Virus record (IMG/VR): IMGVR_UViG_2925897562_000001
DNA length: 64,000 bases
Direction: 5' to 3' (one strand)
Origin: a virus
Lineage: Duplodnaviria; Heunggongvirae; Uroviricota; Caudoviricetes
The notes beneath the pieces were generated by a model, which ran no database searches, was not told where the DNA came from, and worked only from the letters and a program-made list of their open reading frames with translations. Position numbers and translations under genes: made by a program. This document shows, piece by piece, positions 12,401 through 52,166 of the stretch (its first letter is position 1; each line of letters opens with the position of its first letter).

Positions 12401-13194
12401 AAGACGAGATCAAGCAGACAATGGACGCAGCAAGCGCGCGCATTGCAGCAGAACGGAAAGCCAATCTGAATCATGCAGTCGCCGCGCTGACTCAATCGTG
12501 GGTAACAGCAATCAGGAAGGCCGCCACCACAGGGAAAATCACACCGGCAATTGCGGATGTCGTAAACGACGGCTCTAAATTTATGGATGCCTATCAAATG
12601 GATGCGGTGCAGTTGCCATCAGCCTATGGGCAACTCAGCTATCGCATGACCTACAACCTGGTATCAATGTTTACCGACCTTGCCATCCTTGGGCTGGTGG
12701 ACCTTAACGAGGTTACGCCGGAATTGCTCAGCATGCGCAAGAATCATGTGGAGATATTGCACAGAATTAACACGGTACTTGCCGGGCGCACCGATGAAGA
12801 GAAACAGGCAGACGCTGATCGGATAAACCTGGCCCTTGGCAACATCACGGAGGAAGAAATTGCCGCCAGAAACGAGAAACAAGAAGAGTTATCATCAATA
12901 CAGGGTGATGCCACCAGCATAGCTCAGTCTCTTGGTCTGAATTATCGCGTATCCACCGCCGACCTGAAGATGATGTACGCACCAAAATTCGCCGCTGGCG
13001 AGGTATTTGGGCTTCAGGAAGCCTCCGGCATGAAAGGGGTTCTTTTCCGTGCGAAAGACGCAATCAAGGCGAAATTCGGCGCTCGCTGGTTGCCAGCGAA
13101 GGCGAAGAACAGCGACTTCCCAGGTAACTGGTGGATTATCGAGACAAAACACAACGTGGCGGACGTTCTGGCCGTCATCCAACAATACGCATAA
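6427..13194 (+). CDS. darB: DarB antirestriction protein (N-terminal methyltransferase-like plus SF2 helicase domains)
   Basis: 2255 aa, same length as recalled P1 DarB; motifs GNVPFGG, GFGTGLGKTT (Walker A), VIADEGHNYRN (DExH). Confidence 0.9.
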   Translation: MNKLSMGVFRCSSVSEILKYIRAITSHRAPIKYGVEKVEGKSYDRLRREANQKAIDLLNSLVDGATLTDEQRQILAGYTGEGGIGGSVSEYYTPKPIAEGVWEIMKLYGADVGNTLEPSAGTGVFNETKPVGTVMTATEISSVSGRINQLLHPEDSVQISPFEQLAVSTPNDSFDHVVGNVPFGGRDNTRNIDKPYAEETDMGSYFMLRMLDKIKPGGFMCVIVPPSIVSGSNMKRLRLRLSRKAEFLGAHRLPTGTFDANGTSTVVDVVLMRKHPAEMAEKIPLVDESTLESANVLWPTFISGKWFEKDGRRFVHGTQEKGFQGRIEVRADGQIDNQALKAKLIHRFESRIDWSLLDMAEPSPTADVVGEGEMRLINGVWQKYAGGRWIEADAGKELKIDAASYGADSWEALQRNLTTTEGRLGMTFTQMANVRDKYTTSISDDMVQLVDWINSQPEKYRERLYRGAMIGRMLIEYQDMKAAGHSAEQIEQQRLSLVSRLQAEIDRFGNPGRGPIAKLSGSGARAWFAFRGAIKLDGTISDELTGKLVTHDSSASYDSTSYQDTLRYLYSDLTRDPIQLDDFRLAFTGELPASDEELLNLLASTPGIAVSPYGGIVPFARATSGDINEIVAPKQEFLATLPDGPVKNNVLNQLAAIEEKRIKTPAENIRFKLNSRWFDRSVILEFLQENGYPDLRYVQSVQLEGDEMVSDTYHGGDGLFVGHRYGVVQRKDKETGEIRYEWDRKSGENATGFPAQLEKYLNGARIGGKDSATANGYREQMALLEDQFNKWIKTHDRYDELVAKYNDVFNSNIPYEHSGDPLGLKGLSGKRQPFDYQNSEVRRLSEDGRGILGFGTGLGKTTTALALEAFNYENGRSTRTAYVVPKSVLENWYYEAKEFLSEEAFSNYLFVGLDVLMDGDQIRQVPVLDENGKPVLGTDGTPVMRDALKLADEATITARMNAIPHSNYRAVVFTKEQYARIPLRDDTVDEHAQDMLYDFVAAGRVASAMDSDSHRKEAARRRVLSEYSDTGTEKAEKYPYFEDMGFDSVIADEGHNYRNSYKNGREASQLAYLPTSAVAQSARDMAIKNAYLMKKNGGRGPVLLTATPVVNTPIDAYNMLSHVLPKEYWQNMGIYGPDDFVKFFGKTRLETVQKISGEVEEKMALVGFENLDALRGIFHRWVTLKTAEDVKDTVEIPELDEHQQDAPLTEEQLAAYEELRQQAEAAAKANNGVTTSVNEDGVIEHEKARPIFSIIRDMDRVCTDMDLYYRRITYRFLPEYADAVQQLADSLPKQATSEDDDSDDSITQQSQYSLIDKGEFIQLQVPEAFEQEVNKRLARFGIDEQTVTHPVTPKYAKLIATLKEFFPEGKQIIFTDEKTQHQKLKRIICNALNLEPSKVGILNAQTVAEAGKTGKKLKAVKPPKELPDEPTDAQIAKYNEQMALYDAYIAQQNEMSLGGLEKIAADFQEGRTPIIICNKKAEVGINLHRGTTDIHHLTLPWTPASIAQRNGRGARVGSNRASVRVHYYCGKGSFDEYRLKTLKRKAGWISDILRSDKSEMENADANDMIEMQMYTAKDDGERLAMMQVQMDKAKAAKRARQKEQATIDLQNYIKAQHAAGEDVEVLTAELERSKAELEKTTADVAKFKQAVMAKAADNADWKARWGSVHHTDRMLLAQYRASLKSAIQRKANISQAISRYEKLLNRTQKAATDIKRLRPLVEDAINKGILDVDPDLVNHANEFLVIGDRSWRVGQYYDCAGDIVRIKSLDFDSQRADVEIIFTFKGTKSGNWDVKTLDKQVDVTPDEDAVMQKISGGVSIAGINDIVSCDDFYRFQQRGMIKITDSYGVQTTESGYSIDFVGTYTDPLKHAVYPDRRDSALKSSIAKWVLGMMSEGNNRQIRSAETFLVELFGSNYGDVIASYGDTLSPEAIQEKIADAIARMPEKTSQGATRNGDSELEVTNAIFGTNEFRASDYEITTAQFGTIGIYSNKDEIKQTMDAASARIAAERKANLNHAVAALTQSWVTAIRKAATTGKITPAIADVVNDGSKFMDAYQMDAVQLPSAYGQLSYRMTYNLVSMFTDLAILGLVDLNEVTPELLSMRKNHVEILHRINTVLAGRTDEEKQADADRINLALGNITEEEIAARNEKQEELSSIQGDATSIAQSLGLNYRVSTADLKMMYAPKFAAGEVFGLQEASGMKGVLFRAKDAIKAKFGARWLPAKAKNSDFPGNWWIIETKHNVADVLAVIQQYA

Positions 13195-13668: not shown

Positions 13669-13913
13669 AAAAGCGATACTACACAGTAAAGCATGGGACG
13701 CTACGAGCATTACAAGAGTTTGCTGATAAGCATAACGTTGAGGTGCGCAGGGAAGGGGGAAGTAAAGCTCTGCGCATGTACCGCCCGGACGGGAAATGGC
13801 GGACGGTGGTCGATTTCAAAACTAACAGTGTTCCCCAGGGCGTCCGCGATCGGGCATTCGAAGAATGGGAGCAGATCATCATAGATAACGCATTGCTCCT
13901 GAATGCAGATTGA
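13665..13913 (+). CDS. lxc: Lxc/Bof-like C1 co-repressor
   Basis: 82 aa, size and position match recalled P1 lxc (bof). Confidence 0.6.
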   Translation: MKKRYYTVKHGTLRALQEFADKHNVEVRREGGSKALRMYRPDGKWRTVVDFKTNSVPQGVRDRAFEEWEQIIIDNALLLNAD

Positions 13914-13917
13914 CAAT

Positions 13918-13946
13918 TTTGCCCGGAATTACCGGGCAAAATTAAG
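13918..13946. terminator. bidirectional terminator ttttgcccgg-aatta-ccgggcaaaa between lxc and toxSAS gene
   Basis: 10-bp perfect inverted repeat flanked by A/T runs on both sides. Confidence 0.6.
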
Positions 13947-13949
13947 CAA

Positions 13950-15086
13950 CTATCCTTCGTTACGAAGATGCTTATCTAAGAATTTTGTAAACTGGTTTGT
14001 TGAGCCAAAATAGTTGGGGTAGGCTTTTTTTAGTGACTTAATGTTATCTGTAGCAACGAGAACAGATATCAATACATTAGGATTAGAATCGTCTTTATTT
14101 AAGGCCTCAAGGGCTTCATCTGCTTCTTTTGTTTTAAATGCGCGAACAGACACTAGGAACATTTTTTTGTTTTTTGTATTGGGCTTGTTTTCTGCATTTC
14201 TCATTGTTACTAAGTAATGCCCCTTATGATTTTTTGGCAACTTCTTAATCAAATTCGCGTCAGAAGTTAAATTTAAGGCGATGGTGTATGTGCTTAGTTT
14301 CCTCCGTACAGATAAAGTCCGTTCCAGCTCTTTAAGCTCGCCTTCATACTGAGATACAACTAGCTCATCAAGAGTGCAGGCTTTTTCGTCGTGCGCTACA
14401 AGACATCCGGCTAGATAGAAAAATCGTCTCCATTCTGGATGCCCTTCACTTGAAGTTTTCAGCTTGATACCTTCAAGGGTATCAATTATTTCAAGGCTGG
14501 TAGCCCAAGCATGCTGCAATTGAGTTCTTAACTGTATCTCAATCTTTGTTTTTCGCCACGGATATTGATCCTCTTTCTGATCGAAGCAACTGTATGCAAG
14601 GTGGATTCCACTATAGCCGCTGTCTTTGGGAGTAAGATAATCATACTCTTTAACAATCCTATGAACAGATTTGCTTTTTAAAAGACGTTCCTTTAGCTGT
14701 ATCAACTGGTCTAAGTTTCTGACAATGGCCCTACATCCGCCAACGTCCTGCATCCGTGTTAATTTAATTGCATTGCTAGTTCTGCCTCCATCAAGACTAG
14801 GACGCTCTAGTTTATCTATTATGGTAGAAAGTCGCTTAAGTCTTCTTGCAACGAGAATCTTTTTGTCCTTGTCAACCTTAGCAGCTGCTCTTGCTAAATG
14901 ATTTTTCATGAGCATTAATGGATAAAGATGCAGCTCACGGAAATTTTGTATCATTTCAATAGATTGCTGCCTTTCTTCGTCACTACACCCGTGCCTTATC
15001 AATTGAGCAGCCCTATCAATTTGAGATTTTGAATATTTCAACTTGCATTTTTGACTTTGATAAACTTCATTCCCCATTGCTTTCAT
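13950..15086 (-). CDS. RelA/SpoT-homolog small alarmone synthetase-type toxin with C-terminal extension (fused toxSAS, CapRel-like)
   Basis: 378 aa; RSH synthetase motifs RLKRLSTIIDKL (aa 81-92), GGCRAIV (116-122), YSGIHLAY (157-164), EIQLRTQLQHAWA (183-195); AT-rich versus flanks; occupies the res-mod position of P1. Confidence 0.85.
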   Translation of the reverse strand: MKAMGNEVYQSQKCKLKYSKSQIDRAAQLIRHGCSDEERQQSIEMIQNFRELHLYPLMLMKNHLARAAAKVDKDKKILVARRLKRLSTIIDKLERPSLDGGRTSNAIKLTRMQDVGGCRAIVRNLDQLIQLKERLLKSKSVHRIVKEYDYLTPKDSGYSGIHLAYSCFDQKEDQYPWRKTKIEIQLRTQLQHAWATSLEIIDTLEGIKLKTSSEGHPEWRRFFYLAGCLVAHDEKACTLDELVVSQYEGELKELERTLSVRRKLSTYTIALNLTSDANLIKKLPKNHKGHYLVTMRNAENKPNTKNKKMFLVSVRAFKTKEADEALEALNKDDSNPNVLISVLVATDNIKSLKKAYPNYFGSTNQFTKFLDKHLRNEG

Positions 15087-15179
15087 CCATTTTAAATGAT
15101 TTACATGCTGTTACATCTAATGATAAAGCGGTTAGAAAATCAATGGAGAATGTAACCACAAAATTACTGTATGTAATTG

Positions 15180-25902: not shown

Positions 25903-25987
25903 TACATTGAAAAGGCATAGTTTGTGAAAGCGGGGTTTGTAGGCGCGCCACGCTGGGGGCTAATCACATTTCTCCCCCATCTTGCCG

Positions 25988-26239
25988 TTATTTTTTTGGT
26001 GCATCCTCGTTCTGATACACCGGATCGCTCCCTTTTGGCAACTGGAGGCTTAACTGCCGGTAGTGCCGTAGCCGTTCCATGAAATAGGCGCGCAGGTTTT
26101 CCGGTTGCTCACGGGCCACCTGCTCTGCAATCACAGGTATATTCAGCCGTTCTTTGTAAGCAACGCCGCTGGCGGCAAGGTCTACGTTCACCTTGTCTCG
26201 CTCTTCCTGGCTTTTAGCTGCTATATTTCGATCTGACAC
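25988..26239 (-). CDS. hot: homolog of DNA polymerase III theta subunit
   Basis: 83 aa; [43 protein letters not shown] closely resembles recalled E. coli HolE; GTG start with GGAGG SD. Confidence 0.85.
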
Positions 26240-26271
26240 AAGAAACCTCCAGGAGTTAGTGGATCAGGCAC

Positions 26272-26622
26272 ATGCACAATAACGTTCTCAATGTTAGCCG
26301 TTCAATTCAGACAATCAGAGACTGGACCAGTGTGGTGGCATCAATCCCATTGCGGAACAGCATAGACGAACTGCAAATTCGTGTATTGAATCCGAATCAG
26401 GCTAATAAGCAATTGCGCTTTATTTTGACGCTGAAAAGTGAAACAGAGGGGATAAAGCACAGCGTAAAAGTGTTTTCTGAGGCCATTCTGCTTAATGGGA
26501 AGCTCCGGCATCTGGTAAGGCCAGAACGTCAATATCCTGACGTCCTGGCGCGTGAAAAAGACCTTCTTTCTGAAGTTCAGGATAGGGTGATCGATTTCGT
26601 CAAATGCTATCCCCTGCATTGA
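26272..26622 (+). CDS. hypothetical protein (only plus-strand ORF in a minus-strand cluster)
   Basis: 116 aa ORF, weak RBS. Confidence 0.3.
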   Translation: MHNNVLNVSRSIQTIRDWTSVVASIPLRNSIDELQIRVLNPNQANKQLRFILTLKSETEGIKHSVKVFSEAILLNGKLRHLVRPERQYPDVLAREKDLLSEVQDRVIDFVKCYPLH

Positions 26623-26891
26623 GGGCAGGTGTTCCCTTCCGCAAAGTAGGGAAAATTGCTATCAAGTTCATCACACCATCTGCGTTGGTCGTAGCACCAA
26701 AACGCCTCCCACGGTGCACGGAAATACTTCATCCACCAGGACACTCGATCAGGTATATCTGCTGGTGGCAGTTCTTCTGGCAATAATTTGCCTGATAATT
26801 CCCTTTCCGCCCGCGACAGCATTTTTTTGAGGCTCGCGTTCTCTTTTTCAAGCTCATCTACGCGCACCTGTAATTCAGCTTTCGTTGGCAT
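26607..26891 (-). CDS. hypothetical coiled-coil protein with C-terminal CxxC
   Basis: 94 aa from ATG 26891; overlaps upstream ORF end. Confidence 0.45.
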   Translation of the reverse strand: MPTKAELQVRVDELEKENASLKKMLSRAERELSGKLLPEELPPADIPDRVSWWMKYFRAPWEAFWCYDQRRWCDELDSNFPYFAEGNTCPQCRG

Positions 26892-27813
26892 GGTCCACCT
26901 CATGCTTTTCAGCCACCAGCGGCAATAAAGCCCTGGCCATCTTATGAACCAATAGTGCATCAATAATGCCAAGCGTATGCCCCGGCTTAATGTTTAATGC
27001 CGCCTCAAGGTGACACCTTTCCAGGTCACTTTTCTCGGCTTGTTTATGATGATCTGGTGTAATAACGTCGCCCAAAACACGGCTAATTCTTTCTCGTAAT
27101 TGCTGGGTGCCAGCACACTTGATCGCTGTATCGTGGAGACGGTTAACCAGTTCGCGATAAACATGCGGCTTAATGCGGATACGTTCACCGGTGACGCCCT
27201 TTCCTGGCGCTGGCACCGAACTATCCGGAATATCCGGATAGTTGCCAGCCTCGTAAGCTACCCACAGCCAGTGCATGAATGTTTCAGTGGACACACAACC
27301 ACAGTCCACATCGATTTTCCCGCGTTGCTGTTCCAGCCATTGCCCAAAATCCAACCTGTAAGTCTTACTTTCAAGTTCATCACCATTGAACTCGACTTTC
27401 TGCGACGCTATGAGAGCTGATTCGTATTGTTCGCGAGTGACAACTGACTGGTATTCATCGCTATCAAGGCCACCAATTGGAAGCTCAATCTCACAACAAA
27501 AATTGCGCCCAAAGAAAGTGTCTTTTTTGTGGTCTGAGCCAAAAGCAAAAGTCGCGCATGGTGCCATTAAATTGACACTGGGTAGGTAACAATAACTCAT
27601 TCCATCAGGCCACCCGCCGCACTTAGGCAGCTCCTTCACTAACAAGTCGATAAGCTTCATTTTTTTATCATCTTTGCAAGCCGCCAAAGCCATTTGGGCA
27701 AGTGCCAATACTTCATCTGCCGTATATCCAGCACCGTGACCATACATTTCGATACGGGAAATAATCTCTGATATACGCTCTTCAGTGATTCTGGTCATTT
27801 CTTTTTGCGCCAT
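26875..27813 (-). CDS. hypothetical protein
   Basis: 312 aa ORF, ATG start. Confidence 0.6.
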   Translation of the reverse strand: MAQKEMTRITEERISEIISRIEMYGHGAGYTADEVLALAQMALAACKDDKKMKLIDLLVKELPKCGGWPDGMSYCYLPSVNLMAPCATFAFGSDHKKDTFFGRNFCCEIELPIGGLDSDEYQSVVTREQYESALIASQKVEFNGDELESKTYRLDFGQWLEQQRGKIDVDCGCVSTETFMHWLWVAYEAGNYPDIPDSSVPAPGKGVTGERIRIKPHVYRELVNRLHDTAIKCAGTQQLRERISRVLGDVITPDHHKQAEKSDLERCHLEAALNIKPGHTLGIIDALLVHKMARALLPLVAEKHEVDHANES

Positions 27814-28169
27814 TTCTTTTCACATTCCTTAGTCCATTTTTCAATGTTCATTTTGGCAATATCGGTCATTCCATCACCTAAGAAATACTTTCTCCGGTAT
27901 GTCTTGCACTTAAACCACACTACAACAGCCACCAGCCAGAAAATAAAAGGCCATACAGCAATACCAACGACTGCCGCGATAAAGCTCAATATCCATAAAT
28001 GAAGCTCTCCAACTTCTGTTTCCGGCAATATTCTTAAAGAATTAAACAGTAGGCTGAACGCATGGTCGTATGCATTGGCAGTATAAGACATGCAATCCAT
28101 ATAATTAAAGTCATAGCCTGCGGCTGCCGCCCATAATGGGCGGTCAAGAAAATGTTTTAGTGTCATCAT
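27795..28169 (-). CDS. hypothetical membrane protein (2 predicted TM helices, basic C-terminus)
   Basis: 124 aa; LWILSFIAAVVGIAVWPFIFWLVAVVVWF; AT-rich. Confidence 0.55.
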   Translation of the reverse strand: MMTLKHFLDRPLWAAAAGYDFNYMDCMSYTANAYDHAFSLLFNSLRILPETEVGELHLWILSFIAAVVGIAVWPFIFWLVAVVVWFKCKTYRRKYFLGDGMTDIAKMNIEKWTKECEKKWRKKK

Positions 28170-28175
28170 ATAAAT

Positions 28176-28469
28176 TTAAGGTTCAGACCAGTTATCTTCA
28201 ATAGCAATGCTTAATCTTTGTAGCCATTCTGCTAATTTCAGCATTGCTTCTCTTTCGCTTAAACCACGAGGAAAATCATCAAGCGAAATTGTTGGCTTGA
28301 AGCCCCCGTAATTATCCATTTCAACTGTCAGATTTTGCTCCAGCACGGTATTCCTTACGCGGCTATTGTGCCGAAGCAAATATACTGAACGTGATTTATT
28401 GGTTTTATGGTCAAACTGATATTCGGTAAGTATCATCTGGCTTTTGCCATGACTATTACCTCTCCACAT
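28176..28469 (-). CDS. hypothetical protein
   Basis: 97 aa from ATG 28469 (ORF track opens at TTG 28565); AT-rich. Confidence 0.45.
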   Translation of the reverse strand: MWRGNSHGKSQMILTEYQFDHKTNKSRSVYLLRHNSRVRNTVLEQNLTVEMDNYGGFKPTISLDDFPRGLSEREAMLKLAEWLQRLSIAIEDNWSEP

Positions 28470-28647
28470 ACTTACCTCACTTAATAAAACAACTCCATGC
28501 GTAGTTGATGATTTTTTCCCACGTAATATAAATCTGCACTCCGGCAGTAAAACCAAAGCCAACAATTGCTGAAAAAATCAAAACATTTACTTTTGACATT
28601 ATAAATTTTCTCTCGGTGTCGTAGGTGATAGCACCATAATTGATAAT

Positions 28648-28881
28648 TTAGTGAGTTAGCAGTTCCATTTTTTGGATGATTTCCGCATGAGCATCATCGT
28701 TATCAACACTTAACTCGTTTAATGCCTCTCGCACTACATCAACTTCTTCAGGCTGAAAGAAGTCGTCGCGGTAATCACCAAATAGAACCGAAACCAGCCT
28801 GCCACCAGCAACATCAAGATTGGCGCTAACAGGTGGCTCTTTGCCATCCTCAAATTCGACAACAAAAGTTAATTTTCCCAT
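28648..28881 (-). CDS. hypothetical acidic protein
   Basis: 77 aa ORF, AT-rich. Confidence 0.5.
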   Translation of the reverse strand: MGKLTFVVEFEDGKEPPVSANLDVAGGRLVSVLFGDYRDDFFQPEEVDVVREALNELSVDNDDAHAEIIQKMELLTH

Positions 28882-28957
28882 CGTTACCCCCAGAAGATAA
28901 AAATAGCGGCAATCGCCATAGCTACGCCTACAATCGCAAATGCTTCAGGCCAGCTCA

Positions 28958-29218
28958 TTACCGCACCTCAAGTCTCCATGCCGCCTGACCAATCCGGCTG
29001 GCATGGGTATCTTTGGATACTGTTCCGTCTTTAGCCAGCTCCATAAGAATTTTGCGCAAATCTGCCGAGCGCCATTCTTCATCAGGAAATTCCTTCTCCA
29101 TTGCCAACCGCAGATTCCAAGTTGCTATCGTGAATGGATATTCACCGCCGAGAGCTTTCTCTTGTAGGGCAGCACGGGAACGCATCACCTGCAAAACCTT
29201 CTCTTTTACATCCATCAT
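28958..29218 (-). CDS. hypothetical protein
   Basis: 86 aa from ATG 29218, ATGA overlap with upstream gene stop. Confidence 0.5.
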   Translation of the reverse strand: MMDVKEKVLQVMRSRAALQEKALGGEYPFTIATWNLRLAMEKEFPDEEWRSADLRKILMELAKDGTVSKDTHASRIGQAAWRLEVR

Positions 29219-30096
29219 TTCGCCTCCTGCGGCGGTTCTGGTAGCGGCATCCAGTGTGATGGAATCCACGACGCACCAGGAATTATCCAACCATCATTAG
29301 CGTCAGGATGTCCCGGTATGTAAGTCGCCCACTTCATTCGCCAGTCACCTTTCCCGTCAAACTCCCTGGCAACAAGAACAGCTGTTTTGCTATCCGGCAT
29401 TCGCTCACTACAGCTTATCCAATCATCCAGAGTTACCGGAGAATTGCCATTTACCAAGTCAGCTCGAACATATAGCGTGTCATCATGGTGCTGATTGTGG
29501 CTGCACCACGTTAATTCGCTTAACTCGCCATCTTCTGGCCATACTCCAGCCGTTTGCAGCCAGATATGGGCTGGCGCATCTTTGCAAGGTGTATTAACTG
29601 GCAACTTGTAAGTTTGGCTTACAGGTTCGGCACCATGAAGCATGGCGTCGCTCCGCTCTATGCCATCCAGCGCGATTCGCAGTGCATGAATTGTGGTAGA
29701 GCTATCGTTTGGGGCTATTCCATATCGCTCGAATACAGCTAAATGGTTGCGCATAATCTCAGGCGTAAGCTCTTTGTAAGCATAAGCAAGAGGCTCTGAT
29801 GCATTATCCGGCACAACCGACGCAGGCGCGGCAGCATAAACAGGAATAACGTCCGCTTGCTCTTTATTGCTTTCATCCGTTAAAGCCCAGAATAATTTCC
29901 CGGCCGGATGTTTGAAAATATAAGCAACTGGCTCTGCTTCCAGCGATGCCAGCGTAATTTCAGCCAGCTTGAGGTGAATAACCGCCGCATCATAAGCGCC
30001 TGGGACTCTTCCCACCGCAACGCGAAGAACCTCAATATTCTTCTTAGCCTGCTCAATCAACTGCTCTTTGGTGAACTCTTTGGTAATCGTGATCAT
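29215..30096 (-). CDS. hypothetical protein with DUF551-like C-terminus
   Basis: 293 aa; C-terminal WISCSERMPD...WMPLPEPP resembles the phage DUF551 pattern. Confidence 0.6.
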   Translation of the reverse strand: MITITKEFTKEQLIEQAKKNIEVLRVAVGRVPGAYDAAVIHLKLAEITLASLEAEPVAYIFKHPAGKLFWALTDESNKEQADVIPVYAAAPASVVPDNASEPLAYAYKELTPEIMRNHLAVFERYGIAPNDSSTTIHALRIALDGIERSDAMLHGAEPVSQTYKLPVNTPCKDAPAHIWLQTAGVWPEDGELSELTWCSHNQHHDDTLYVRADLVNGNSPVTLDDWISCSERMPDSKTAVLVAREFDGKGDWRMKWATYIPGHPDANDGWIIPGASWIPSHWMPLPEPPQEAK

Positions 30097-40714: not shown

Positions 40715-43861
<3,147 letters not shown>

Positions 43862-43890
43862 GAAAAGCCCGGCGATCGGGCTTTTCTTTT
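43862..43890. terminator. bidirectional rho-independent terminator gcccg-gcgat-cgggc + ttttctttt
   Basis: hairpin flanked by A-run and T-run between convergent genes. Confidence 0.65.
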
Positions 43891-43906: not shown

Positions 43907-44881
43907 TTATCCGTTACCGCACGACGGTTTCTGCGTGATAAACGTCTCAAGCATCTTTTCCGCAATTGCCGACCAGGTGTGACACTGGACCTTTTCAGCA
44001 TTTTTCACGCGATCAACGCGAGCAATAACCTCATCCCAATCAATCCGCGACTTGATAACCATATGGTTCACCAAAGCCAGGCGATCTGGCGGAAGGCAAT
44101 CGGGAGGCGTTAATACCAACGCCCCGCACATTGCCGCCTCAAGAACAGTTAATCCAAGGCTTTCGGGATGCGTAACGATAAAAACGTCACTCTTACGCAA
44201 TTCAGCTGCAAATTCGGTTGCTGGCACCGGCGTCCGTCTGTATGGAATTACCGAAATATTCCCCGGATCAATGGTAACCAATCCGTCATCAGTCAACGTT
44301 CTGGCCTCATACGGAACGGTCAGACGCTGAAGGTTCATAAGGATACTTAAGGAGTGATCAAACCCACTAACATCAAATGCAGCGTGGTCTACAAAAATAC
44401 GCAGAACATCGTCTGTTTTGGTTTCCAGATGGAACAGATCCTGATTCGCTGCCCATCCAACATGTTTGTTAAAGCGATTATGACGCTCTAACCTGCCGGG
44501 ATTATCCAGGTACCGCCAGGTATCATCGCGGACAGTAAAAGTAATATCGACTGGTGCCGAATCCAGCATAGAACCGTCATATACCTGGGCTACCCATCCA
44601 GAGAATCGGCGACACAGTTGCATGCCTATTTCCCTGGGTACCGTAGTAAAATACCTCAATCCTGGTGCCAAAATGGCCTTCGCAGAACATGCGGTCGCAG
44701 CAGTCAACACAGCTTCAACATAATCCTCCGGGCTTTCGACGCCGGGGGAATATGGACGATGGTATTGCAATGTAACCCCTGCCTCACTAAAGGCGCAGGC
44801 CAGGTTATAAGCCCACATTTCCGTATATGTTTTCACATCACTGATAGCTTCAAATTTTCGCCCAATGATCAGGATGTTCAT
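43907..44881 (-). CDS. GT-B-type glycosyltransferase-like protein, last gene of ban operon
   Basis: 324 aa; C-terminal SLGLTVLEAAMCGALVLTP resembles the GT-B donor-binding region; ATGA overlap with upstream ORF. Confidence 0.65.
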   Translation of the reverse strand: MNILIIGRKFEAISDVKTYTEMWAYNLACAFSEAGVTLQYHRPYSPGVESPEDYVEAVLTAATACSAKAILAPGLRYFTTVPREIGMQLCRRFSGWVAQVYDGSMLDSAPVDITFTVRDDTWRYLDNPGRLERHNRFNKHVGWAANQDLFHLETKTDDVLRIFVDHAAFDVSGFDHSLSILMNLQRLTVPYEARTLTDDGLVTIDPGNISVIPYRRTPVPATEFAAELRKSDVFIVTHPESLGLTVLEAAMCGALVLTPPDCLPPDRLALVNHMVIKSRIDWDEVIARVDRVKNAEKVQCHTWSAIAEKMLETFITQKPSCGNG

Positions 44882-45180
44882 TGCGTCTCCTTTTCCCTGA
44901 CTAAAAGCTCATCCAGCTTGCTTTTATGTTTGAGCACATAGCCACATATTTTTCCTTTGGAGCTAATTTGCGGAATGGAATAATATTCCGAAAATACTAA
45001 TTCAGCCTTTTCTAAGACAAGTGAAACACCATAGCGCGCAACATGTCTGTCGGTCATTTTTGCATCACTGAGATTACCTTTAATTGATAACCAGTCGTTG
45101 AGGTACATATGGTTGCGATTGGCTTTTTTCAGCATGTTGCTCAACCAATTTTTATTACGCTTAGTTAGTTTCCGTTGCAT
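44878..45180 (-). CDS. hypothetical basic protein (AT-rich), coupled between ban and the glycosyltransferase-like gene
   Basis: 100 aa; start overlaps ban stop; markedly lower GC than flanks. Confidence 0.55.
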   Translation of the reverse strand: MQRKLTKRNKNWLSNMLKKANRNHMYLNDWLSIKGNLSDAKMTDRHVARYGVSLVLEKAELVFSEYYSIPQISSKGKICGYVLKHKSKLDELLVREKETQ

Positions 45181-46544
45181 TAATAATCCTCTTGCCAGTC
45201 AGCACCGGCATAGTTATCAAACCGTGAGTATTGGCCGTTAAAAGCCAATCTCACCGTGCCAATTGGGCCATTTCGTTGCTTACCGATAATTACCTCGGCA
45301 ATGCCCTTCATTTCGCTATCCGGGTGATAAACTTCGTCACGATACAGAAACATGATCAGGTCTGCGTCCTGCTCAATTGCTCCTGATTCACGTAAATCTG
45401 AATTTACCGGTCGTTTGTCCGCACGCTGTTCAAGCGATCGATTAAGTTGTGACAATGCCACCACCGGTACTTGTAATTCCTTCGCCAAAGCCTTCAGTGA
45501 GCGAGAAATCTCGGCAATTTCCAGCGTTCGGTTATCTTGCAGCTCGGGGACGCGCATAAGTTGCAGGTAGTCGATCATAATCATGCTCAAACCACCATTT
45601 TCTTTATAAACACGACGAGCGCGGGAACGAAGCTCTGTAGGTGTCAGGGCGCTTGAGTCATCAATAAAAATATTCTGCTTGTCCAACAGAATCCCCATTG
45701 CGCCAGAAACCCGCGCCCAATCCTCGTCGTTAAGTTGCCCTGTTCGAATACGAGTCTGATCAACGCGTGCAAGAGAAGCCAGTGAGCGCATCATCAGCTG
45801 GTGGCTCGGCATCTCAAGGCTAAAAACCAATACGGGCTTATCGTTACGGACTGCGGCATTTTCGACGAGATTCATCGCAAACGTAGTCTTCCCCATCGAT
45901 GGGCGGGCGGCGACAATAATGAGATCGGACGCCTGAAGTCCTGCCGTCTTCTTATTGAGATCGGTAAATCCGGTATCAAGCCCTGTTACACCATCATGCG
46001 GTCGCTGAAACAACTCTTCTATGCGAGATACCGTTGCATCGAGAATGCTGGCGATATCTTTTGGACCACTACCGCTCTTTTGTCGTTTTTCAGCTATTTC
46101 AAAAACGCGGCGCTCGGCCATATCCAGCAATTCATTGCTGCCCCTGCCATCCTGCGCATATCCAGCTTCAGCTATTTCATTTGCGACGGAAATCATTTCA
46201 CGAACAACCGCGCGTTCACGAACGATATCCGCATAAGCACAAATATTTGCCGCGCTGGGCGTGTTCTTTGACATCTCCGCAAGGTACGCAAAACCACCGG
46301 CGCGTTCTAATTTACCGTTCTGTTCAAGTGCTTCAGCAAGTGTTATCAAATCAATCGGTTTGCCATGACTTAATAACCTCTCCATCTCACTGAAAATTTC
46401 ACGATGAGCACTGGTATAAAAATCATCAGCAACTATACGATCTACAACTTCATCCCAGCGGCAGTTATCAAGCATTAAGCCACCAAGTACAGCTTGTTCT
46501 GCACTAAGGGAATTTGGCATGGATTCAAGAGGGGATGCAGACAT
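45180..46544 (-). CDS. ban: DnaB-like replicative helicase
   Basis: 454 aa from ATG 46544; Walker A ARPSMGKTTFAMN; DnaB-family C-terminal domain. Confidence 0.9.
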   Translation of the reverse strand: MSASPLESMPNSLSAEQAVLGGLMLDNCRWDEVVDRIVADDFYTSAHREIFSEMERLLSHGKPIDLITLAEALEQNGKLERAGGFAYLAEMSKNTPSAANICAYADIVRERAVVREMISVANEIAEAGYAQDGRGSNELLDMAERRVFEIAEKRQKSGSGPKDIASILDATVSRIEELFQRPHDGVTGLDTGFTDLNKKTAGLQASDLIIVAARPSMGKTTFAMNLVENAAVRNDKPVLVFSLEMPSHQLMMRSLASLARVDQTRIRTGQLNDEDWARVSGAMGILLDKQNIFIDDSSALTPTELRSRARRVYKENGGLSMIMIDYLQLMRVPELQDNRTLEIAEISRSLKALAKELQVPVVALSQLNRSLEQRADKRPVNSDLRESGAIEQDADLIMFLYRDEVYHPDSEMKGIAEVIIGKQRNGPIGTVRLAFNGQYSRFDNYAGADWQEDY

Positions 46545-46829
46545 TAGCACTCCACCCAGGCGTGCTGAATGTCAGATATAATCGGCATACTCAAATCACT
46601 CCTAACGATATGAGTCATCACCAGAAAATCAGGATTAATGCGCCGGACTCTTCCCGGCTGTCACACCAAATCGCCAGGATGGTGAGTCCCTGTATCCGCT
46701 ATCCCTCCAACGGTGACTTGCACATTCCGGCTACCTGGTTTGTTGCCTGAGCTAGGGGAAAAGGTAACCCCTTTAACGTCACCAGACCGCTAACGACGCA
46801 TGTGCCAGACGCCGTGTTACAACCAAATA

Positions 46830-46905
46830 TGGTGGCCCCTACCGGACTTGAACCGGTGACCGTGCGATTATGAGTCGCCAGCTCTAACCACTGAGCTAAA
46901 GGGCC
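46830..46905 (-). tRNA. tRNA-Ile2 (anticodon CAU, lysidine type)
   Basis: 76 nt cloverleaf; near-identical to recalled E. coli ileX; acceptor GGCCCTT, T-loop GGTTCAAGTCC, 3' CCA. Confidence 0.85.
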
Positions 46906-46932: not shown

Positions 46933-47760
46933 TTATTTCACCGGAACAAACGGAACAGCGGTATTACTGGTCATATACTGCGGTAATGTACCGTTCCATT
47001 TGTTGATCGCTTCCAACTCCATAACACCGGGGTTCTGGCGCAGAGCTTCACCACGTAAACGAATGGCATCAGCTTCGGCCTGGGCTTTTGTGCGAATAGC
47101 ATCAGCCTGTCCGGCAGCTTCCGCGCGCAGCATGTTGGCCTCTGCTTCACGTTGTTTGACCTCTTGCTCGCGTTGCAGGGTTTTTTGGTTTGCCGTGACT
47201 TTGGCGTTAATACTGTCAATAACTGTTGGCGGGTATTCTGGCTTACCTACATAAGAGAGGCTCATCACCTGAATGCCGATTGGCGTCATTTCTTCCTGAA
47301 TGTCTTTAAGGGCTGCATCAAGCAATTCGGATTTGCCACCGTCGATAAATTTGTCGGTTGTCATTTTGCTGGCTAACCGGTTCAGAGCATCTGCAACCTT
47401 CTGGCGTAGATCGGTATCAGTAATATCATCTACACCTTTGCGATAGGTCTGAAATACCGTTGTGACTTTTGCTGGATCAACCTTGTAGGCTACGCCGATG
47501 TGGTAACCAATGGTTGTTCCGTCGCTCATCTGGAAGCTGAACGGCTCATCGTATGTCTTCATTTGCTTAAAGGTCGGGAAGATATAAACTTCAGTATTCA
47601 AGCCTGTCCAGTAGCGACCAACGCCAACTACTTCACCGATACCTTTATCATCCCCCAGCTTATTTACTTTGATCCCTACGTTACCTGGCTCTACCCGATC
47701 GCATCCGGTCAGACATAAAGAACCCAAAATAATCGCTGCACTAATCAACGTTTTTTTCAT
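46933..47760 (-). CDS. plp: SPFH/band-7 domain lipoprotein
   Basis: 275 aa; lipobox LCLTGC; C-terminal Ala/Glu-rich coiled coil. Confidence 0.8.
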   Translation of the reverse strand: MKKTLISAAIILGSLCLTGCDRVEPGNVGIKVNKLGDDKGIGEVVGVGRYWTGLNTEVYIFPTFKQMKTYDEPFSFQMSDGTTIGYHIGVAYKVDPAKVTTVFQTYRKGVDDITDTDLRQKVADALNRLASKMTTDKFIDGGKSELLDAALKDIQEEMTPIGIQVMSLSYVGKPEYPPTVIDSINAKVTANQKTLQREQEVKQREAEANMLRAEAAGQADAIRTKAQAEADAIRLRGEALRQNPGVMELEAINKWNGTLPQYMTSNTAVPFVPVK

Positions 47761-47977
47761 TAATTAATTTCCTGGTTTTTTCACGAAAAAAGACTACTGC
47801 GAAAGCTGGGTAAATGAGCGCGAGAAGGACTCCCAACAATACAAGTATTGTGCTGTTAGATGAGATCATATTTGGCAAAAGCCAAACATACAGAACCAGT
47901 GACACAATCAAACAGAGGACGGCATAAATATATAACCGCACCCATAGCGTTCGACATTTGTTCGGATTGTTCTGCAT
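47741..47977 (-). CDS. upl: small two-TM membrane protein upstream of plp
   Basis: 78 aa hydrophobic ORF overlapping plp start. Confidence 0.55.
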   Translation of the reverse strand: MQNNPNKCRTLWVRLYIYAVLCLIVSLVLYVWLLPNMISSNSTILVLLGVLLALIYPAFAVVFFREKTRKLINEKNVD

Positions 47978-48240
47978 CCTCTCACTCCATTATTTAACGA
48001 ATAAAAAAGCTGCGGTGCCGGGTGCCTCCCGGTGTCCTTTGGCTGGTTATCCACCGTGGACGGGGAAACAAGGAGAAATGAATGGACTGATATAACCATT
48101 TCCCCGCGTGCGCTTAGCCGCATTCACCGCAATGGTAAGAGCACTTGGCTGGCTGGGCGGCGATGACGCCTGTACGCATTTGTTGATCCGGTTCTGCTTC
48201 CGGCATTCGCTTAATTAGCCAAATACTCTTAACGTTGCGC

Positions 48241-48327
48241 TGGCGGAGAGTAATGGAATCGAACCATCATCGCTTGCGCTATGGGACGGTTTTCAAGACC
48301 GCTTGAGCACCATGCTCCCTACTCTCC
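48241..48327 (-). tRNA. tRNA-like element, long variable arm, anticodon loop CTTGAAA (UGA, Ser-like), non-canonical D-arm
   Basis: 7-8 bp acceptor GGAGAGT/ACTCTCC, T-arm GATGG-TTCGATT-CCATT, 3' GCCA; hand-folded only. Confidence 0.35.
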
Positions 48328-48748: not shown

Positions 48749-48824
48749 TGGTGCCGATTAACGGACTCGAACCGCTGACATCCTGCTTACAAGGCAGGCG
48801 CTCTACCAACTGAGCTAAACCGGC
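48749..48824 (-). tRNA. tRNA-Thr (anticodon UGU)
   Basis: 76 nt; GCCGGTT...GCTCAGTTGGTAGAGC...loop CTTGTAA...GGTTCGAGTCC...CCA. Confidence 0.85.
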
Positions 48825-48826
48825 AT

Positions 48827-48902
48827 TGGCGATGGTGGATGGATTTGAACCATCGACCCGTTGATTAACAGTCAACCGCTCTAACCGCTGAGCTACACCA
48901 TC
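48827..48902 (-). tRNA. tRNA-Asn (anticodon GUU)
   Basis: 76 nt; loop CTGTTAA; T-loop GGTTCAAATCC; 3' GCCA. Confidence 0.85.
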
Positions 48903-49393: not shown

Positions 49394-49570
49394 AAACTGG
49401 AAGCTCGTAACGCACTTCGGTGTTGCCACTTAGGCGTATGGTCAACCTGGCAACTCGGCGTCATGAGGGGGAAGGAGTCACTACCCCGCCATACTTGCCG
49501 CCGCGCCTGTCGCGGCTAACAGCTAAATCGCTCTATAAATCACGATTCATTGAGGCGATATTACACTAAT

Positions 49571-49587
49571 AAATTTATTAGAGCAAT
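49571..49587 (-). promoter_or_regulatory. C1 operator, perfect consensus ATTGCTCTAATAAATTT
   Basis: 17/17 match, leftward orientation toward tRNAs-upl-plp-ban. Confidence 0.75.
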
Positions 49588-52166
49588 ATAGCCATAACGT
49601 CATGAGCAACACCACGAGTGTCTCCCTTACAAGACACAGAACGTCTGGCAAAGAGAGGTTCCACTCTGAAGCCTCTGTCCTGATAAAGTTCTCTGACGTT
49701 TGGCGCGCCACTGTTAGTAATGAGTACCTTTGCACCTCGGCGATGAGCATCCGTCAACAGAGACACCAGGCGTTTTTGCTCTTCAAACTTAAAGTCATGA
49801 CCGGAATAGTTCGTGAACCCCTCTGTATTGGGGAGCGGTTCATACGGCGGATCGCAAAAGATGACATCTCCTTCTCCGGCAGCTTCAATCACTGCTGCAA
49901 AATCACCGCATACAAACTCAGACCGCCCTTCCGCACCGAGGAAGGCTTCCATCTCCTGTAATGGGAAATACGGAGTTTTATACTTCCCATAACCGACATT
50001 GAACTCACCGGCCTGGTTGTAGCGCGTCAATCCGTTAAAACAATGACGGTTCAGGAACAAAAACGCCGCTGCGCGATGTAAATCATCATAGACTTGTTTG
50101 TTAAACGCATTCCGTACTGCCAAGTATCCCTCCTGGGTGTTGTAGTCCAGGAAAAAACGATGTGCCAGAGTGATAAGTGAATGCTCCTCGCGTTGCAGAG
50201 TCTTGTAAAAGTTAATCAGGTCAGCATTCACATCATTTAGCAGATTTTCCTGGTATCCGGCATTCATGAAGACAGCTCCGCCACCGACGAAAGGTTCAAT
50301 CAGGCGCTTCCCTTCTGGCAAATAGCGAAAGATTTGTTCCAGAACACCAAATTTTCCACCGGCCCATTTGAATATGGACCGTTCGAATTCTGCCGCTGGT
50401 TTAACTTTTCGCTCTTTTGTTTCACTTCCTTCTTTCTGCCGACATACGGCCTTAGTAATCCGATCGCCAATCCAGCGCATTACTGGTATTGCCATACTAT
50501 TGCCGATCGCTTTGTAACGCGGTCCGTCAGCTGCAAGCATCGCGGCCTCTTCTTCGCTTAAATCTGGATAGTGATTGCGAAGATATGCCAGTTCATCTGA
50601 ATTAACTTTTTTACGCTTTTCCGTCGGGATCAACGTATGCCCATCAGGAAAACCTTGAAGTCTCTCACATTCGACAGGGGTAAGACGGCGAACACTCATC
50701 ATATGAGGTAAGTAACCATTCTCACCTAATTCGCCTTTTTCAATACTTTTCTGCCCCCCAAAAGATAACGCAACGGCGTCAGCTGTAGCGCGGGAATCAA
50801 GAGTAAAACTTATCTCTTTTTGCCACCCTTTACCTTGCGGTCCAGCATCATCTTTTCGCCCAATTTGTGCATGTTGTAGCGAATACGCAACAGCTGGTGG
50901 GCAGCCTGCATTTGGATTGCTATTAACAGAATTACCTGATCGTAAAGTCGGAGAACATTCAATAGAAACATCTTGTCCATAATCTTTGCAGGAAAAAGCT
51001 ACAACTGCATTTTCTTGACCATGGTTACGACCAATAGTATGTGCCAATTCACAATTAACATCAGGATCTTGTGTTCCATGAATAGCCATCACCGCCAGAT
51101 GTTCGTGACTTTCTTGTGATCTGGCACGAAGAGTGCCTGCACCTTCACGCCAACTACCAGCACCAGTACTACTGAAAACAGCTAAATCGGTTGCATCTTT
51201 AAAATCTCTGGCCTTGACAGTAGAAGCAGTCTCATCATCAGCATATTCGCCAAATGCAACCATTCGATAAGCACCAACAAGCCCACTTCCGCGCTGCGCA
51301 AAAATCTCTTGGTTACTTGCACCGATTCCGCCAGTATTGTGTGACTGGTTAAGTGTCGGGTGAGGATTTACAGGGTTATCCCAATGGCTCCCGCTTTTAA
51401 TGCCATTTCCAACATTTCCGGCAACTTCCTTCCCCTCGCCTCTGCTCGGCGCAATATTCCGGCGCACGCCTTCGAACTCAAAAAGTACCGTTGCGGGATC
51501 GAGGTCTGTTCGAGCACTTGCGACAACAAACACGCGTCGGCGTCGTTGTGCCACTCCGAAGTATTGGGCATCAAGGATTCTCCAGGCCACCTTTCGCTGC
51601 GGTCCATAAATACAACCACACTGCGGCCACTTTGGAACATGGCAACCGGTTTTGCCATCCCACCGCCAGAACGCGTTGCTTTTTCCTGATTCAGGTCGAT
51701 CACCTGGTTCAAATGGCACATCTTCTCCAGCCAATCCAGCAAGGAAACATCCGAAGGCGTTATCTGCCGATGACAAGACTCCTGGGACATTTTCCCAGAC
51801 GATAACGGCTGGTTTGAGAAATGACTCAGCCCGTTTGTCGTCAATTGCATTTGCAAGCTCCACATACTTTAAAGTTAGCGCGCCACGCTCATCATCAAGC
51901 CCACCACGTAATCCCGCGATACTGAATGCCTGACAAGGTGTTCCCCCGACGAGCACATCAGGGGATTCGATTTCCCCAGCCAGGACTTTTTTGGCAAGTT
52001 TTGTCATGTCGCCAAGGTTGGCGACATGGGGCCAGCGGTGCGCAAGAACGGCAGATGGAAAAGACTCGATTTCAGCAAACCACACCGGACGCATACCCAA
52101 CGGTTCCCAGGCAATACTCGCGGCTTCAATTCCACTGCAAACAGATCCATAGCACAGCTCTTTCAC
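49578..52166 (-). CDS. dmt: bifunctional DNA methyltransferase (C5-cytosine MTase N-terminal domain plus Dam-like N6-adenine MTase C-terminal domain)
   Basis: 862 aa; GTG start overlapping hrdC stop; motifs [12 protein letters not shown] (PCQ) and FKWAGGK...DPPY. Confidence 0.9.

Follow-up and report, generated by a model that had tools for sequence, protein, structure and literature searches.

The locus lies on the minus strand of the window (the whole 64-kb stretch of DNA analyzed) and consists of three genes whose stop and start codons overlap in series: ban (45180-46544), orf100 (44878-45180), and dbn (43907-44881). It is the distal end of a C1-repressed, P1-type ban operon, and most of what it contains is known biology. 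The features of the operon, listed leftward from the operator, are the following:

49560-49587, no strand: Oban (formerly Op72ab), bivalent C1 operator with overlapping ban promoters; start of the operon, leftward transcription
48749-48902, minus: tRNA-Asn and tRNA-Thr (P1 trnA and trnT), found by ARAGORN, by Rfam (74.5 and 72.9 bits), and in the P1 annotation
48241-48327, minus: tRNA-Ser(tga), found by ARAGORN
46933-47977, minus: variable cargo, a 78-aa membrane ORF and a 275-aa SPFH/Band-7 lipoprotein (Pfam Band_7, E = 1e-30)
46830-46905, minus: P1 trnI (tRNA-Ile2), a tRNA with anticodon CAT shortly upstream of ban, found by ARAGORN and Rfam; 100% identical to P1 trnI
45180-46544, minus: ban, DnaB-family replicative helicase, 454 aa, by Pfam and identity to P1 Ban
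45790-45817, minus: promoter-like site within ban, TTGAGA-16-GATGAT, the sole minus-strand match of the promoter scan; a prediction only
44878-45180, minus: orf100, 100-aa basic protein of phrog_12809 (PHROG match), polymorphic among P1-like elements
44882-45169, minus: gapped stretch of the alignment to P1 and P7, within which 275 window bases have no P1 counterpart
43907-44881, minus: dbn (glt in P7), 324-aa soluble GT-B glycosyltransferase of GT4 type by sequence and fold, EX7E at E240-E248
43860-43888, no strand: GC-rich hairpin between an A-run and a T-run, likely a bidirectional terminator (RNA fold -18.2 kcal/mol, z = -4.0)
43229-43861, plus: gene 5 (baseplate), convergent with dbn and marking the end of the ban operon, from the ORF list and the syntenic P1 gene annotation

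The start of ban was taken as the ATG at 46544, which gives the P1 length of 454 aa; an in-frame GTG further upstream, at 46550, was listed mechanically. The TAA of ban and the ATG of orf100 share one base (ATTAATG, base 45180), the TGA of orf100 and the ATG of dbn overlap by four (ATGA, 44878-44881), and each downstream gene has a Shine-Dalgarno sequence of its own, AGAGGA for orf100 and AAGGAG for dbn. Every reading frame and overlap of the coupled arrangement described in the initial annotation was confirmed. Its placement of these genes under C1 repression also holds: Oban comprises a pair of overlapping sites that differ from ATTGCTCTAATAAATTT by 0 and 2 mismatches, at a position and in an arrangement that agree with the P1 annotation, and the window contains 14 matches to the C1 consensus versus 0.3 expected by chance.

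Ban carries an N-terminal DnaB domain (PF00772, E = 5e-35) and a C-terminal DnaB_C domain (PF03796, E = 1e-107), both far over the gathering scores, is identical to P1 Ban at 451 of 454 residues (99%), and is the DnaB-type helicase of the phage. Transcription is predicted to proceed leftward from the operator and promoter near 49.58 kb through the tRNAs, the cargo slot, trnI, ban, orf100, and dbn and to end at the hairpin at 43860-43888, with orf100 and dbn presumably translated in tandem with ban by way of the 1-base and 4-base overlaps as well as from their own ribosome-binding sites. The promoter-like site within ban coincides with the predicted P2dbn of the P1 annotation and, if active, could give C1-independent expression of orf100 and dbn. 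Rfam and promoter scans within the orf100 insert found no structured RNA and no promoter.

The P1 ban operon (Oban/C1, tRNAs, tciABC, trnI, ban, dbn) resembles that of the window in its operator, tRNA-Asn and tRNA-Thr, trnI, ban, dbn, and the convergent gene 5. The window differs in an SPFH lipoprotein module in place of tciABC, an additional tRNA-Ser, and orf100 between ban and dbn. The tRNA-Ser(tga) has a 99% blastn match in the P7 locus (L002) and none in the P1 stretch examined (L001). The SPFH module, standing in place of P1 tciA, tciB, and tciC, is also present in MH422554 and in 5 of the 18 orf100-positive loci. Nothing found for ban, orf100, and dbn overturns the current understanding of the P1 ban operon, of which orf100 is the only unusual part. 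The operon had initially been described as extended by two genes; this is right for the 100-aa gene, which lies outside canonical P1 and P7, but the glycosyltransferase gene is P1's own dbn.

In the case of dbn ("downstream of ban"), the window and P1 share the gene, its orientation, its position between ban and gene 5, and the terminator region, and the product is identical to P1 Dbn (P1_gp078) at 319 of 324 residues (98%). The gene occupies the same place in P1, P7, RCS47, SJ46, and others, where it is already annotated as a possible glycosyltransferase; its neighbors, ban and gene 5, are unchanged in 18 P1-like phage records, and conservation of Dbn extends to thousands of E. coli plasmids of P1 type. 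By CRISPRi, dbn is nonessential in P1 (PMC10695390), and our literature search returned no paper reporting a function for its product.

Judged by motif and fold, Dbn is a soluble GT-B glycosyltransferase, GT4-like and presumably retaining, with its EX7E donor site intact. The donor-binding signature singled out in the initial annotation, SLGLTVLEAAMCGA, is present and corresponds to the EX7E region, which reads E240-SLGLTVL-E248 and in which E240, S241, G243, and E248 do not vary among 50 homologs. The GT-B fold proposed along with it was recovered as two facing Rossmann-like beta/alpha/beta domains. Pfam Glycos_transf_1 (PF00534) matches the C-terminal domain only, at 25.1 bits versus a gathering score of 26.4 (E = 1.5e-5), and the same family appears in the precomputed Pfam list for a cluster (P0022) that is 98% identical to Dbn. 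Members of CAZy GT4 such as PimA, PimB, BshA, MshA, WaaG, and sucrose-phosphate synthase have 350 to 450 aa versus 324 for Dbn, which is only 9 to 15% identical to any solved enzyme and whose N-terminal acceptor domain has no sequence match.

What Dbn modifies is suggested by the company its homologs keep. One bacterial homolog (P0047, 40% identical) has KpsF, KdsA, and KdsB on its flanks, each scoring over the curated cutoff, and a short way upstream, separated by one small ORF, a WaaZ-like protein, with a GT1 further upstream; another (P0055, 34% identical) comes after a Wza-type exporter and a WaaZ-like protein. This Kdo/capsule context comes from two bacterial loci whose homologs are only 34 to 40% identical to Dbn. 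Phage homologs are grouped with GT8, GT47, polysaccharide pyruvyl transferase, and sugar nucleotidyltransferase. By analogy with these surroundings, Dbn may draw on a host nucleotide sugar to modify a glycan of the envelope (the LPS core or a Kdo-containing polysaccharide) and not DNA. It might thereby alter the LPS receptor of induced or lysogenic cells, possibly the receptor of P1 itself; because the dbn operon is repressed in lysogens, such masking would depend on activity of the predicted internal promoters.

The initial annotation had named DNA and a cell-surface structure as candidate targets, and the structural ranking and the polysaccharide contexts make DNA the less likely of the two. 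Glycosylation of newly made phage DNA by an enzyme coexpressed with the replicative helicase, as a means of evading restriction, would fit the transcript that dbn shares with ban, and distant homologs do occur in large phage contigs near RecA/UvsX-like and DEAD helicase genes. We nonetheless consider it very unlikely. The T4 alpha-glucosyltransferase and the phage HY126 glycosyltransferase have the GT-B fold and a phage origin in common with Dbn but rank only 30th to 35th as structural matches, about 30 non-DNA GT4/GT5 enzymes outscoring both, and these DNA enzymes are not the closest structural relatives of Dbn. Both act on 5-hmC or 5-hoC supplied by dedicated phage enzymes, none of which was found among the window ORFs; a phmmer search with phage ThyA against all 270 of these returned no ThyA-like dNMP hydroxymethylase at E <= 10, with about 30 kb of the element lying outside the window. 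To our knowledge, the P1 genome encodes no such enzyme either, P1 DNA carries methylation only, and all known DNA sugar transferases require a hydroxylated base. Dbn is also acidic (pI 5.5), and its homologs sit in Kdo and polysaccharide clusters in bacteria and beside glycan enzymes (polysaccharide pyruvyl transferase, GT8, GT47) in phages.

The gene between ban and dbn is a real gene rather than a chance ORF, judging from its PHROG match, the length-conserved but diverged homologs, and dN/dS. The protein matches phrog_12809 with E = 8.8e-46, its residues 1 to 100 aligning with positions 1 to 104 of the 106-position profile, and the reciprocal family alignment agrees. A phmmer search over 1.84 billion representatives retrieved only six proteins, all of this family. 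Members such as Av-05 gp060, SBVP3_0061 of Vibrio phage phi3, and gene_34 of Cronobacter phage JK004 resemble orf100 in length, in the N-terminal MKRKLxxRNK, and in predicted fold. Identity to members beyond P1-type plasmids is 28 to 43%, about equally low for all branches of the family, and the orf100 branch itself is limited to E. coli, Salmonella, and related P1-type plasmids. At similar dS, dN/dS is 0.26 to 0.38 for orf100 versus 0.03 to 0.14 for DnaB, some three to four times the value for its neighbors and still indicative of purifying selection.

The protein is basic, as originally noted (pI 9.87; 20 K+R versus 10 D+E). Its AF2 model (pLDDT 84.9, pTM only 0.52) consists of a helical hairpin, then a three-stranded sheet, then a C-terminal helix. 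Its invariant basic positions (K4, R8, K10, R45, and R49) map to the start of helix 1 and the end of helix 2 and should therefore cluster at the open end of the hairpin. Searches by sequence and by fold found no relative of known function. The best structural matches were the ribbon-helix-helix antitoxins MazE7 and TacA, but the match covers less than half of orf100, which has no N-terminal beta-strand (the DNA-reading ribbon), no toxin partner, and no sequence similarity to these proteins.

The comparison with the P1 ban-dbn region proposed in the initial annotation separates the two genes: the 324-aa protein has the glycosyltransferase fold, and orf100 is not in all P1-like genomes. It is missing from P1, P7, and all 18 of the P1-like phage records. 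Among P1-type plasmids, 51 of 439 carry it (12%, about 1 in 8), with 95 to 100% identity between copies, as do 79 of 5,426 complete E. coli genomes, in single copy and always after ban; all 18 IMG/VR copies are intact. At least three different upstream haplotypes accompany it: one with SPFH, one with P1-type tciABC, and one with tciB and tciC but no tciA match. A specific linkage of orf100 to SPFH was rejected, since orf100 occurs on several cargo haplotypes and SPFH also occurs without orf100. Further afield, JK004 and the P1 relatives from Salmonella and Cronobacter have a family member whose start overlaps the stop of the DnaB gene directly before it; no helicase adjoins the family member in Avunavirus, in T5-like Vibrio phages, or in two temperate-like contigs (L037 and L038). 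An all-against-all BLASTP of family neighbors found no partner gene conserved across lineages.

Two histories could explain this distribution, and the P1 junction helps to decide between them. P1 retains ATGCAAtGGAA, the orf100 start codon together with 10 of the first 11 bases, covering codons 1 to 4, which encode the family-conserved N terminus M[KQ][RK]K. Such a remnant favors a loss in P1 over a gain in the window. The site probably had orf100 ancestrally, and the junction of P1 and P7 is probably the product of a deletion. A deletion of 275 nt, which leaves a remainder of 2 on division by 3, would have fused the orf100 start codon in frame with dbn, whence the P1 Dbn annotation that is 8 residues longer. 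In the window, dbn starts at an internal ATG (MNILIIG) because orf100 occupies the ban-overlapping ATG from which, 8 codons earlier, the P1 annotation starts. Since Dbn homologs align from the internal start, the 332 aa annotated for P1 Dbn probably include, at the N terminus, 8 residues that are a relic of orf100, a small annotation correction.

The opposite history, recent insertion from an AT-rich phage, follows the original suggestion that low GC marks orf100 as acquired. Its GC is indeed low (0.386, versus 0.481 for ban, 0.487 for dbn, and 0.482 for the window) and resembles Avunavirus copies (0.36 to 0.37) and the Vibrio phage copy (0.39), unlike copies in P1 relatives (0.49 to 0.56). 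But GC3 is ordinary (0.426, near the 0.44 of ban and within about 1.2 standard deviations of long window ORFs, 0.487 +/- 0.053); the deficit falls at codon positions 1 and 2 and therefore reflects a Lys/Asn-rich composition. Insertion would also suit a minority allele of low internal diversity that is not nearest to the JK004-clade homologs, and an identity of 28 to 43% to all branches, set beside the 82% of Ban with the JK004 helicase, would be compatible with xenologous replacement or gain. Against a recent arrival are the multiple upstream haplotypes, the family member at the same site in the sister clade, and the family start at the P1 empty site, whose overlap with the ban stop is just that seen in distant relatives. 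No divergent recombination tract borders orf100, and single-nucleotide differences from P1 are evenly spread rather than clustered at the insert edges. We regard insertion as possible but doubtful.

With respect to function, orf100 is an accessory gene, carried optionally, that belongs to a small orphan phage family; its product, given the modeled basic patch, could bind a polyanion such as nucleic acid and act early in lytic growth, modulating replication or countering host defence. One possibility, tentative and on balance rather improbable, is that it is a counter-defence or host-takeover early protein, kept only where the host immunity factor that it targets is common. Patchy spread over unrelated phage groups, presence and absence within P1-like elements, an elevated omega at similar dS, and an operon with a known variable cargo slot would all suit this, as would neighbors elsewhere that form typical anti-defence surroundings (Dam, N6/N4 and C5 methylases, an RlaP-type nucleotidyltransferase, and a dGTP_diPhyd_N protein). 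Yet orf100 resembles no known anti-defence protein and has no PADLOC match, it assorts independently of the other cargo, and a dN/dS everywhere below 1 offers no proof of diversifying selection.

It is unlikely that orf100 is a dedicated Ban/DnaB partner (a minimal loader, ring-opener, or regulator) with coupling serving to coproduce the two, even though the gene starts at the DnaB stop codon in every P1-superfamily carrier examined (the window, JK004, L025, L029-L032, and L039), its dS is close to that of DnaB, indicating long coinheritance, and its conserved charged patch is what would be expected at ssDNA or a helicase. The gene is missing from P1, P7, and some 88% of P1-type plasmids, whose Ban is 99% identical, and because P1 does without orf100, Ban function is independent of it. 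The family's separation from helicases in Avunavirus, T5-like Vibrio phages, and the L037 and L038 contigs also argues against a partnership, as does the lack of any resemblance, in fold or in sequence, to DnaC, lambda P, DciA, DnaA domain I, or gp59, and evolution three to four times faster than that of DnaB would be odd in an obligate partner. In a more far-reaching form, to which we likewise assign a low probability, phrog_12809 would be a new class of small basic DnaB-helicase partner, coupled throughout the P1 superfamily, with K4, R8, K10, R45, and R49 bridging ssDNA and the ring. If this were true, orf100 would be a minimal loader or loading modulator, and P1, after losing it, would have fallen back on host DnaC. 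A selfish mobile gene, such as a homing endonuclease gene, or a spurious ORF is the least credible of these proposals: free-standing homing endonuclease genes are often small and placed exactly between two conserved genes, but orf100 has no HNH, GIY-YIG, or LAGLIDADG match in sequence or fold, never exceeds one copy or leaves its one site in the 79 genomes, and combines purifying selection and a confident fold with intact reading frames in all copies examined.

Taken jointly, an operon end of P1 type, a Dbn directed at envelope glycans, an optional orf100, and a deletion in the history of P1 make up the explanation that we prefer, and we judge the combination slightly better than an even bet. 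The association of bacterial Dbn homologs with Kdo and polysaccharide-export clusters turns a conserved gene into a concrete hypothesis of LPS or envelope-glycan modification. As for orf100, nature supplies a clean polymorphism, the gene being present or absent at one fixed site beside a helicase gene; its fast-evolving orphan family is common to unrelated virulent phages, and because isogenic pairs with and without it exist in nature, its phenotype should be easy to test.

Within 43907-46550, the ORF list places three genes in a row on the minus strand: ban, encoding the DnaB-type helicase of P1; a 100-amino-acid ORF, here called orf100; and dbn, a 324-amino-acid ORF whose product has the GT-B glycosyltransferase fold. 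These and the other elements of the operon are as follows.

Elements of the ban operon in the window
43860-43888: strong hairpin, common to the end of dbn and the convergent baseplate gene 5
43907-44881, minus strand: dbn, 324-amino-acid ORF
44878-45180, minus strand: orf100, 100 amino acids
45180-46544, minus strand: ban, DnaB-type helicase
45817-45790, minus strand: predicted internal promoter, P2dbn of the P1 annotation, retained
46933-47977, minus strand: variable cargo slot with a 78-amino-acid membrane ORF and a 275-amino-acid SPFH/Band-7 lipoprotein (Pfam E = 1e-30)
48241-48327, minus strand: extra tRNA-Ser(tga)
49560-49587: bivalent C1 operator, like P1 Oban

Reading the sequence, we found that the TAA of ban shares one base with the ATG of orf100 (ATTAATG), that the orf100 stop overlaps the dbn start as ATGA, and that both downstream genes have Shine-Dalgarno sequences of their own (AGAGGA for orf100, AAGGAG for dbn). 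A GTG at 46550, upstream of ban, was listed mechanically, and the P1 start differs. GC content dips to 0.377-0.39 across 44800-45199; by gene it is 0.481 (ban), 0.386 (orf100), and 0.487 (dbn), and the orf100 protein is basic (pI 9.87). The ORF list, sequence, and composition thus bear out the three overlapping minus-strand ORFs of the initial annotation, with a low-GC, basic 100-amino-acid ORF among them. Its interpretation was only partly right: orf100 is a variable feature, not described before, of an operon that is itself known, but the glycosyltransferase taken as an extension of that operon is the dbn of P1. The region shares 97-98.5% identity with P1, P7, RCS47, SJ46, and other punaviruses, with 451 of 454 Ban residues and 319 of 324 Dbn residues identical to those of P1. 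Since this gene is already annotated in P1 as dbn ("function unknown, possible glycosyltransferase") and in P7 as glt, it is a canonical operon member. A genome-wide CRISPRi screen found both ban and dbn to be nonessential in P1 (PMC10695390).

The control region of the operon is intact, and downstream of the operator come tRNA-Asn, tRNA-Thr, the extra tRNA-Ser, the cargo slot, trnI, ban, orf100, dbn, and the hairpin. In P1 the cargo slot holds tciA, tciB, and tciC, whereas here it holds the SPFH/Band-7 module, which had no PADLOC match and which also occurs in MH422554 and in 5 of the 18 IMG/VR loci that carry orf100. The extra tRNA-Ser(tga), without a match in the stretch of P1 examined, is 99% identical to a stretch of the P7 locus and in Rfam is tRNA-Sec-like, scoring below the gathering score. 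Between this tRNA and the SPFH module, 48011-48131 on the minus strand weakly matches the gammaproteobacterial small RNA STnc100 (37.8 bits; gathering score, 47).

Every P1-like phage record aligned to the window in two pieces, lacking about 275 nt. At the P1/P7 junction, where ban and dbn meet without orf100, TTAATGCAATGGAA is followed by TGAGGAAAAGCCG and then ATGAAC, while in the window TTAATGCAACGGAA is followed by ACTAAC, the body of orf100, GGAGACGCA, and then ATGAAC. The insert was present in 0 of 18 P1-like phage records, in 51 of the 439 PLSDB plasmids with the P1 ban-dbn junction, and in 79 of 5,426 complete Escherichia coli genomes, each time as a single copy after ban and in 78 of the 79 on a plasmid. 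All 18 IMG/VR contigs with orf100 keep the ORF and both overlaps intact. This is a real indel polymorphism. It assorts independently of other cargo: the upstream cargo haplotypes that accompany orf100 number at least three, and in MH422554 the SPFH haplotype occurs with no orf100.

The orf100 protein matches the uncharacterized family phrog_12809 (E = 9e-46). A word-index search and exhaustive phmmer over 1.84 billion representatives returned only a handful of relatives, and a profile search widened the family to about 20 proteins, 28-43% identical and 93-113 amino acids long, with invariant M1, K4, L5, R8, N9, K10, L17, M42, R45, and R49. Cronobacter phage JK004 and Salmonella and Cronobacter elements of about 93-97 kb (L005, L025, L029-L032, and L039), whose DnaB is 82% identical to Ban, are a sister clade of the P1-like elements. 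In every one of them the DnaB stop codon overlaps the start of a family member (TGATG or ATGATG); dbn is missing, and three or four small conserved ORFs lie between the orf100 homolog and the convergent baseplate genes. One of these elements, L039, has a gene with a dGTP_diPhyd_N domain immediately upstream of DnaB. Elsewhere, in Avunavirus phages (Av-05 and relatives) the family gene comes after an RlaP-type nucleotidyltransferase and an ORF of 72 amino acids, in T5-like Vibrio phages it comes after thyA, a gene for DHFR, and small ORFs, and in two phage-like contigs it lies in arrays where small coupled ORFs occur alongside Dam and other methylases. No partner gene is common to these lineages; this is an orphan phage family whose link to DnaB is interesting and nonuniversal.

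Comparisons within the JK004-like clade reveal how the gene evolves. The orf100 homolog changes fastest: between elements its identity is 49-84%, whereas DnaB keeps 86-95% and another small neighbor 83-95%. Its dN/dS is 0.26-0.38 (0.10 in one pair), against 0.03-0.14 for DnaB and the small neighbor, and dS is similar for all three genes. A dN/dS below 1 and a dS like that of DnaB mark the homolog as a genuine gene that is subject to purifying selection and coinherited with DnaB, at an ω 3-4 times higher.

Low GC had been read as a sign that orf100 was acquired, but this is weak evidence. Homologs have the GC of their surroundings in JK004-type relatives (0.49-0.56) and 0.36-0.39 in AT-rich phages. 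By codon position, GC is 0.426/0.307/0.426 in orf100 versus 0.604/0.398/0.44 in ban, and GC3 in long ORFs of the window is 0.487 +/- 0.053. The deficit lies in positions 1 and 2 and thus reflects a Lys/Asn-rich protein, poor evidence for recent foreign origin. The P1 junction itself keeps an ATG overlapping the ban stop and matches 10 of the 11 5' bases of orf100, bases that encode the family-conserved N terminus M-[KQ]-[RK]-K. As the missing 275 nt leave a remainder of 2 when divided by 3, the relic ATG falls in frame with dbn, which explains the eight extra residues of P1's annotated 332-amino-acid Dbn. These first eight codons, MQWNEEKP (72659-72682 of NC_005856; 4122-4145 of our P1 locus, L001), seem to be a remnant of the orf100 start that became fused to dbn, not genuine Dbn sequence, as alignments of 50 Dbn homologs begin at the internal MNILIIG, a start that is served by a GAGG ribosome-binding site of its own. 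No divergent tract was seen at the insert edges, and in the sister clade a family member occupies the same site. The relic start, its frame, the edges, and the sister-clade occupancy therefore favor ancestral presence, and we consider it probable that orf100 was deleted in the P1/P7 type. There is room for gain or allele replacement at the site, as the window orf100, a minority allele, lies at roughly the same distance from every family branch.

An AlphaFold2 model of orf100 from a 17-sequence alignment (pLDDT, 84.9; pTM, 0.52) has helices at 2-22 and 27-50, strands at 60-63, 66-72, and 78-85, and a helix at 86-99. A BFVD search returned family members only, and a member-by-member Pfam scan and a profile-to-PDB search were empty. 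The invariant basic residues fall where helix 1 of the model begins and where helix 2 ends; an antiparallel hairpin would bring them together, and we infer a conserved cationic patch that would bind a polyanion. The protein may be a helicase partner, a counterdefense factor, or a generic nucleic-acid binder.

No function for Dbn was reported in the literature searched, and the initial annotation had suggested modification of DNA or a cell-surface target. The genomic neighborhoods of Dbn homologs favor glycans. In one bacterial locus, a homolog with 40% identity is surrounded by KpsF, KdsA, and KdsB (each scoring above its curated cutoff), a GT1, and a WaaZ-like protein; in another, a homolog with 34% identity comes after a Wza-type exporter and a WaaZ-like protein. 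Large phage-like contigs of 97-281 kb (L034-L036) encode homologs 31-33% identical in glycan clusters with a sugar nucleotidyltransferase bearing a cupin domain, GT8, GT47, a polysaccharide pyruvyl transferase, and methyltransferases, adjoining RecA/UvsX-like and DEAD helicase genes. DNA is a highly improbable acceptor: same-fold DNA-modifying enzymes ranked only 30th and 35th by structure, a ThyA-like hydroxymethylase was not found in the window, and Dbn is acidic. Given these contexts, that absence, and the acidity, we tentatively prefer an envelope glycan, LPS core or Kdo-containing polysaccharide, as the leading candidate, with a virion protein or other acceptor unlikely. Because P1 adsorbs to LPS core, receptor modification is an attractive putative purpose for Dbn, and the predicted P2dbn promoter could give expression in lysogens.

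Other parts of the window also differ from P1. A non-P1 segment of low GC (0.38) at 13912-15178 lies downstream of ulx- and lxc-size ORFs, which come after a darB-size ORF (6427-13194), at about the position of the res-mod genes in P1. It contains a gene (13950-15086, minus strand) whose 378-amino-acid product has a RelA/SpoT nucleotidyltransferase domain (Pfam E = 3e-12), matches the PADLOC candidate defense family PDC-S33 (E = 7e-86), and resembles the CapRel-type fused toxin-antitoxin defense genes known from the P1-like phage SJ46. In the dmt-like ORF (49578-52166, 862 amino acids), an internal 735-nt segment at 50691-51425 had no match of at least 75% identity in the P1 and MH422554 stretches compared; a specificity or domain segment of this DNA methyltransferase gene may thus have been swapped. 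Finally, 25918-32354 is a patchwork of short segments (141-995 nt) unmatched in those stretches and is probably the hypervariable pmgT-humD region known in P1-like plasmids (PMC9603915).
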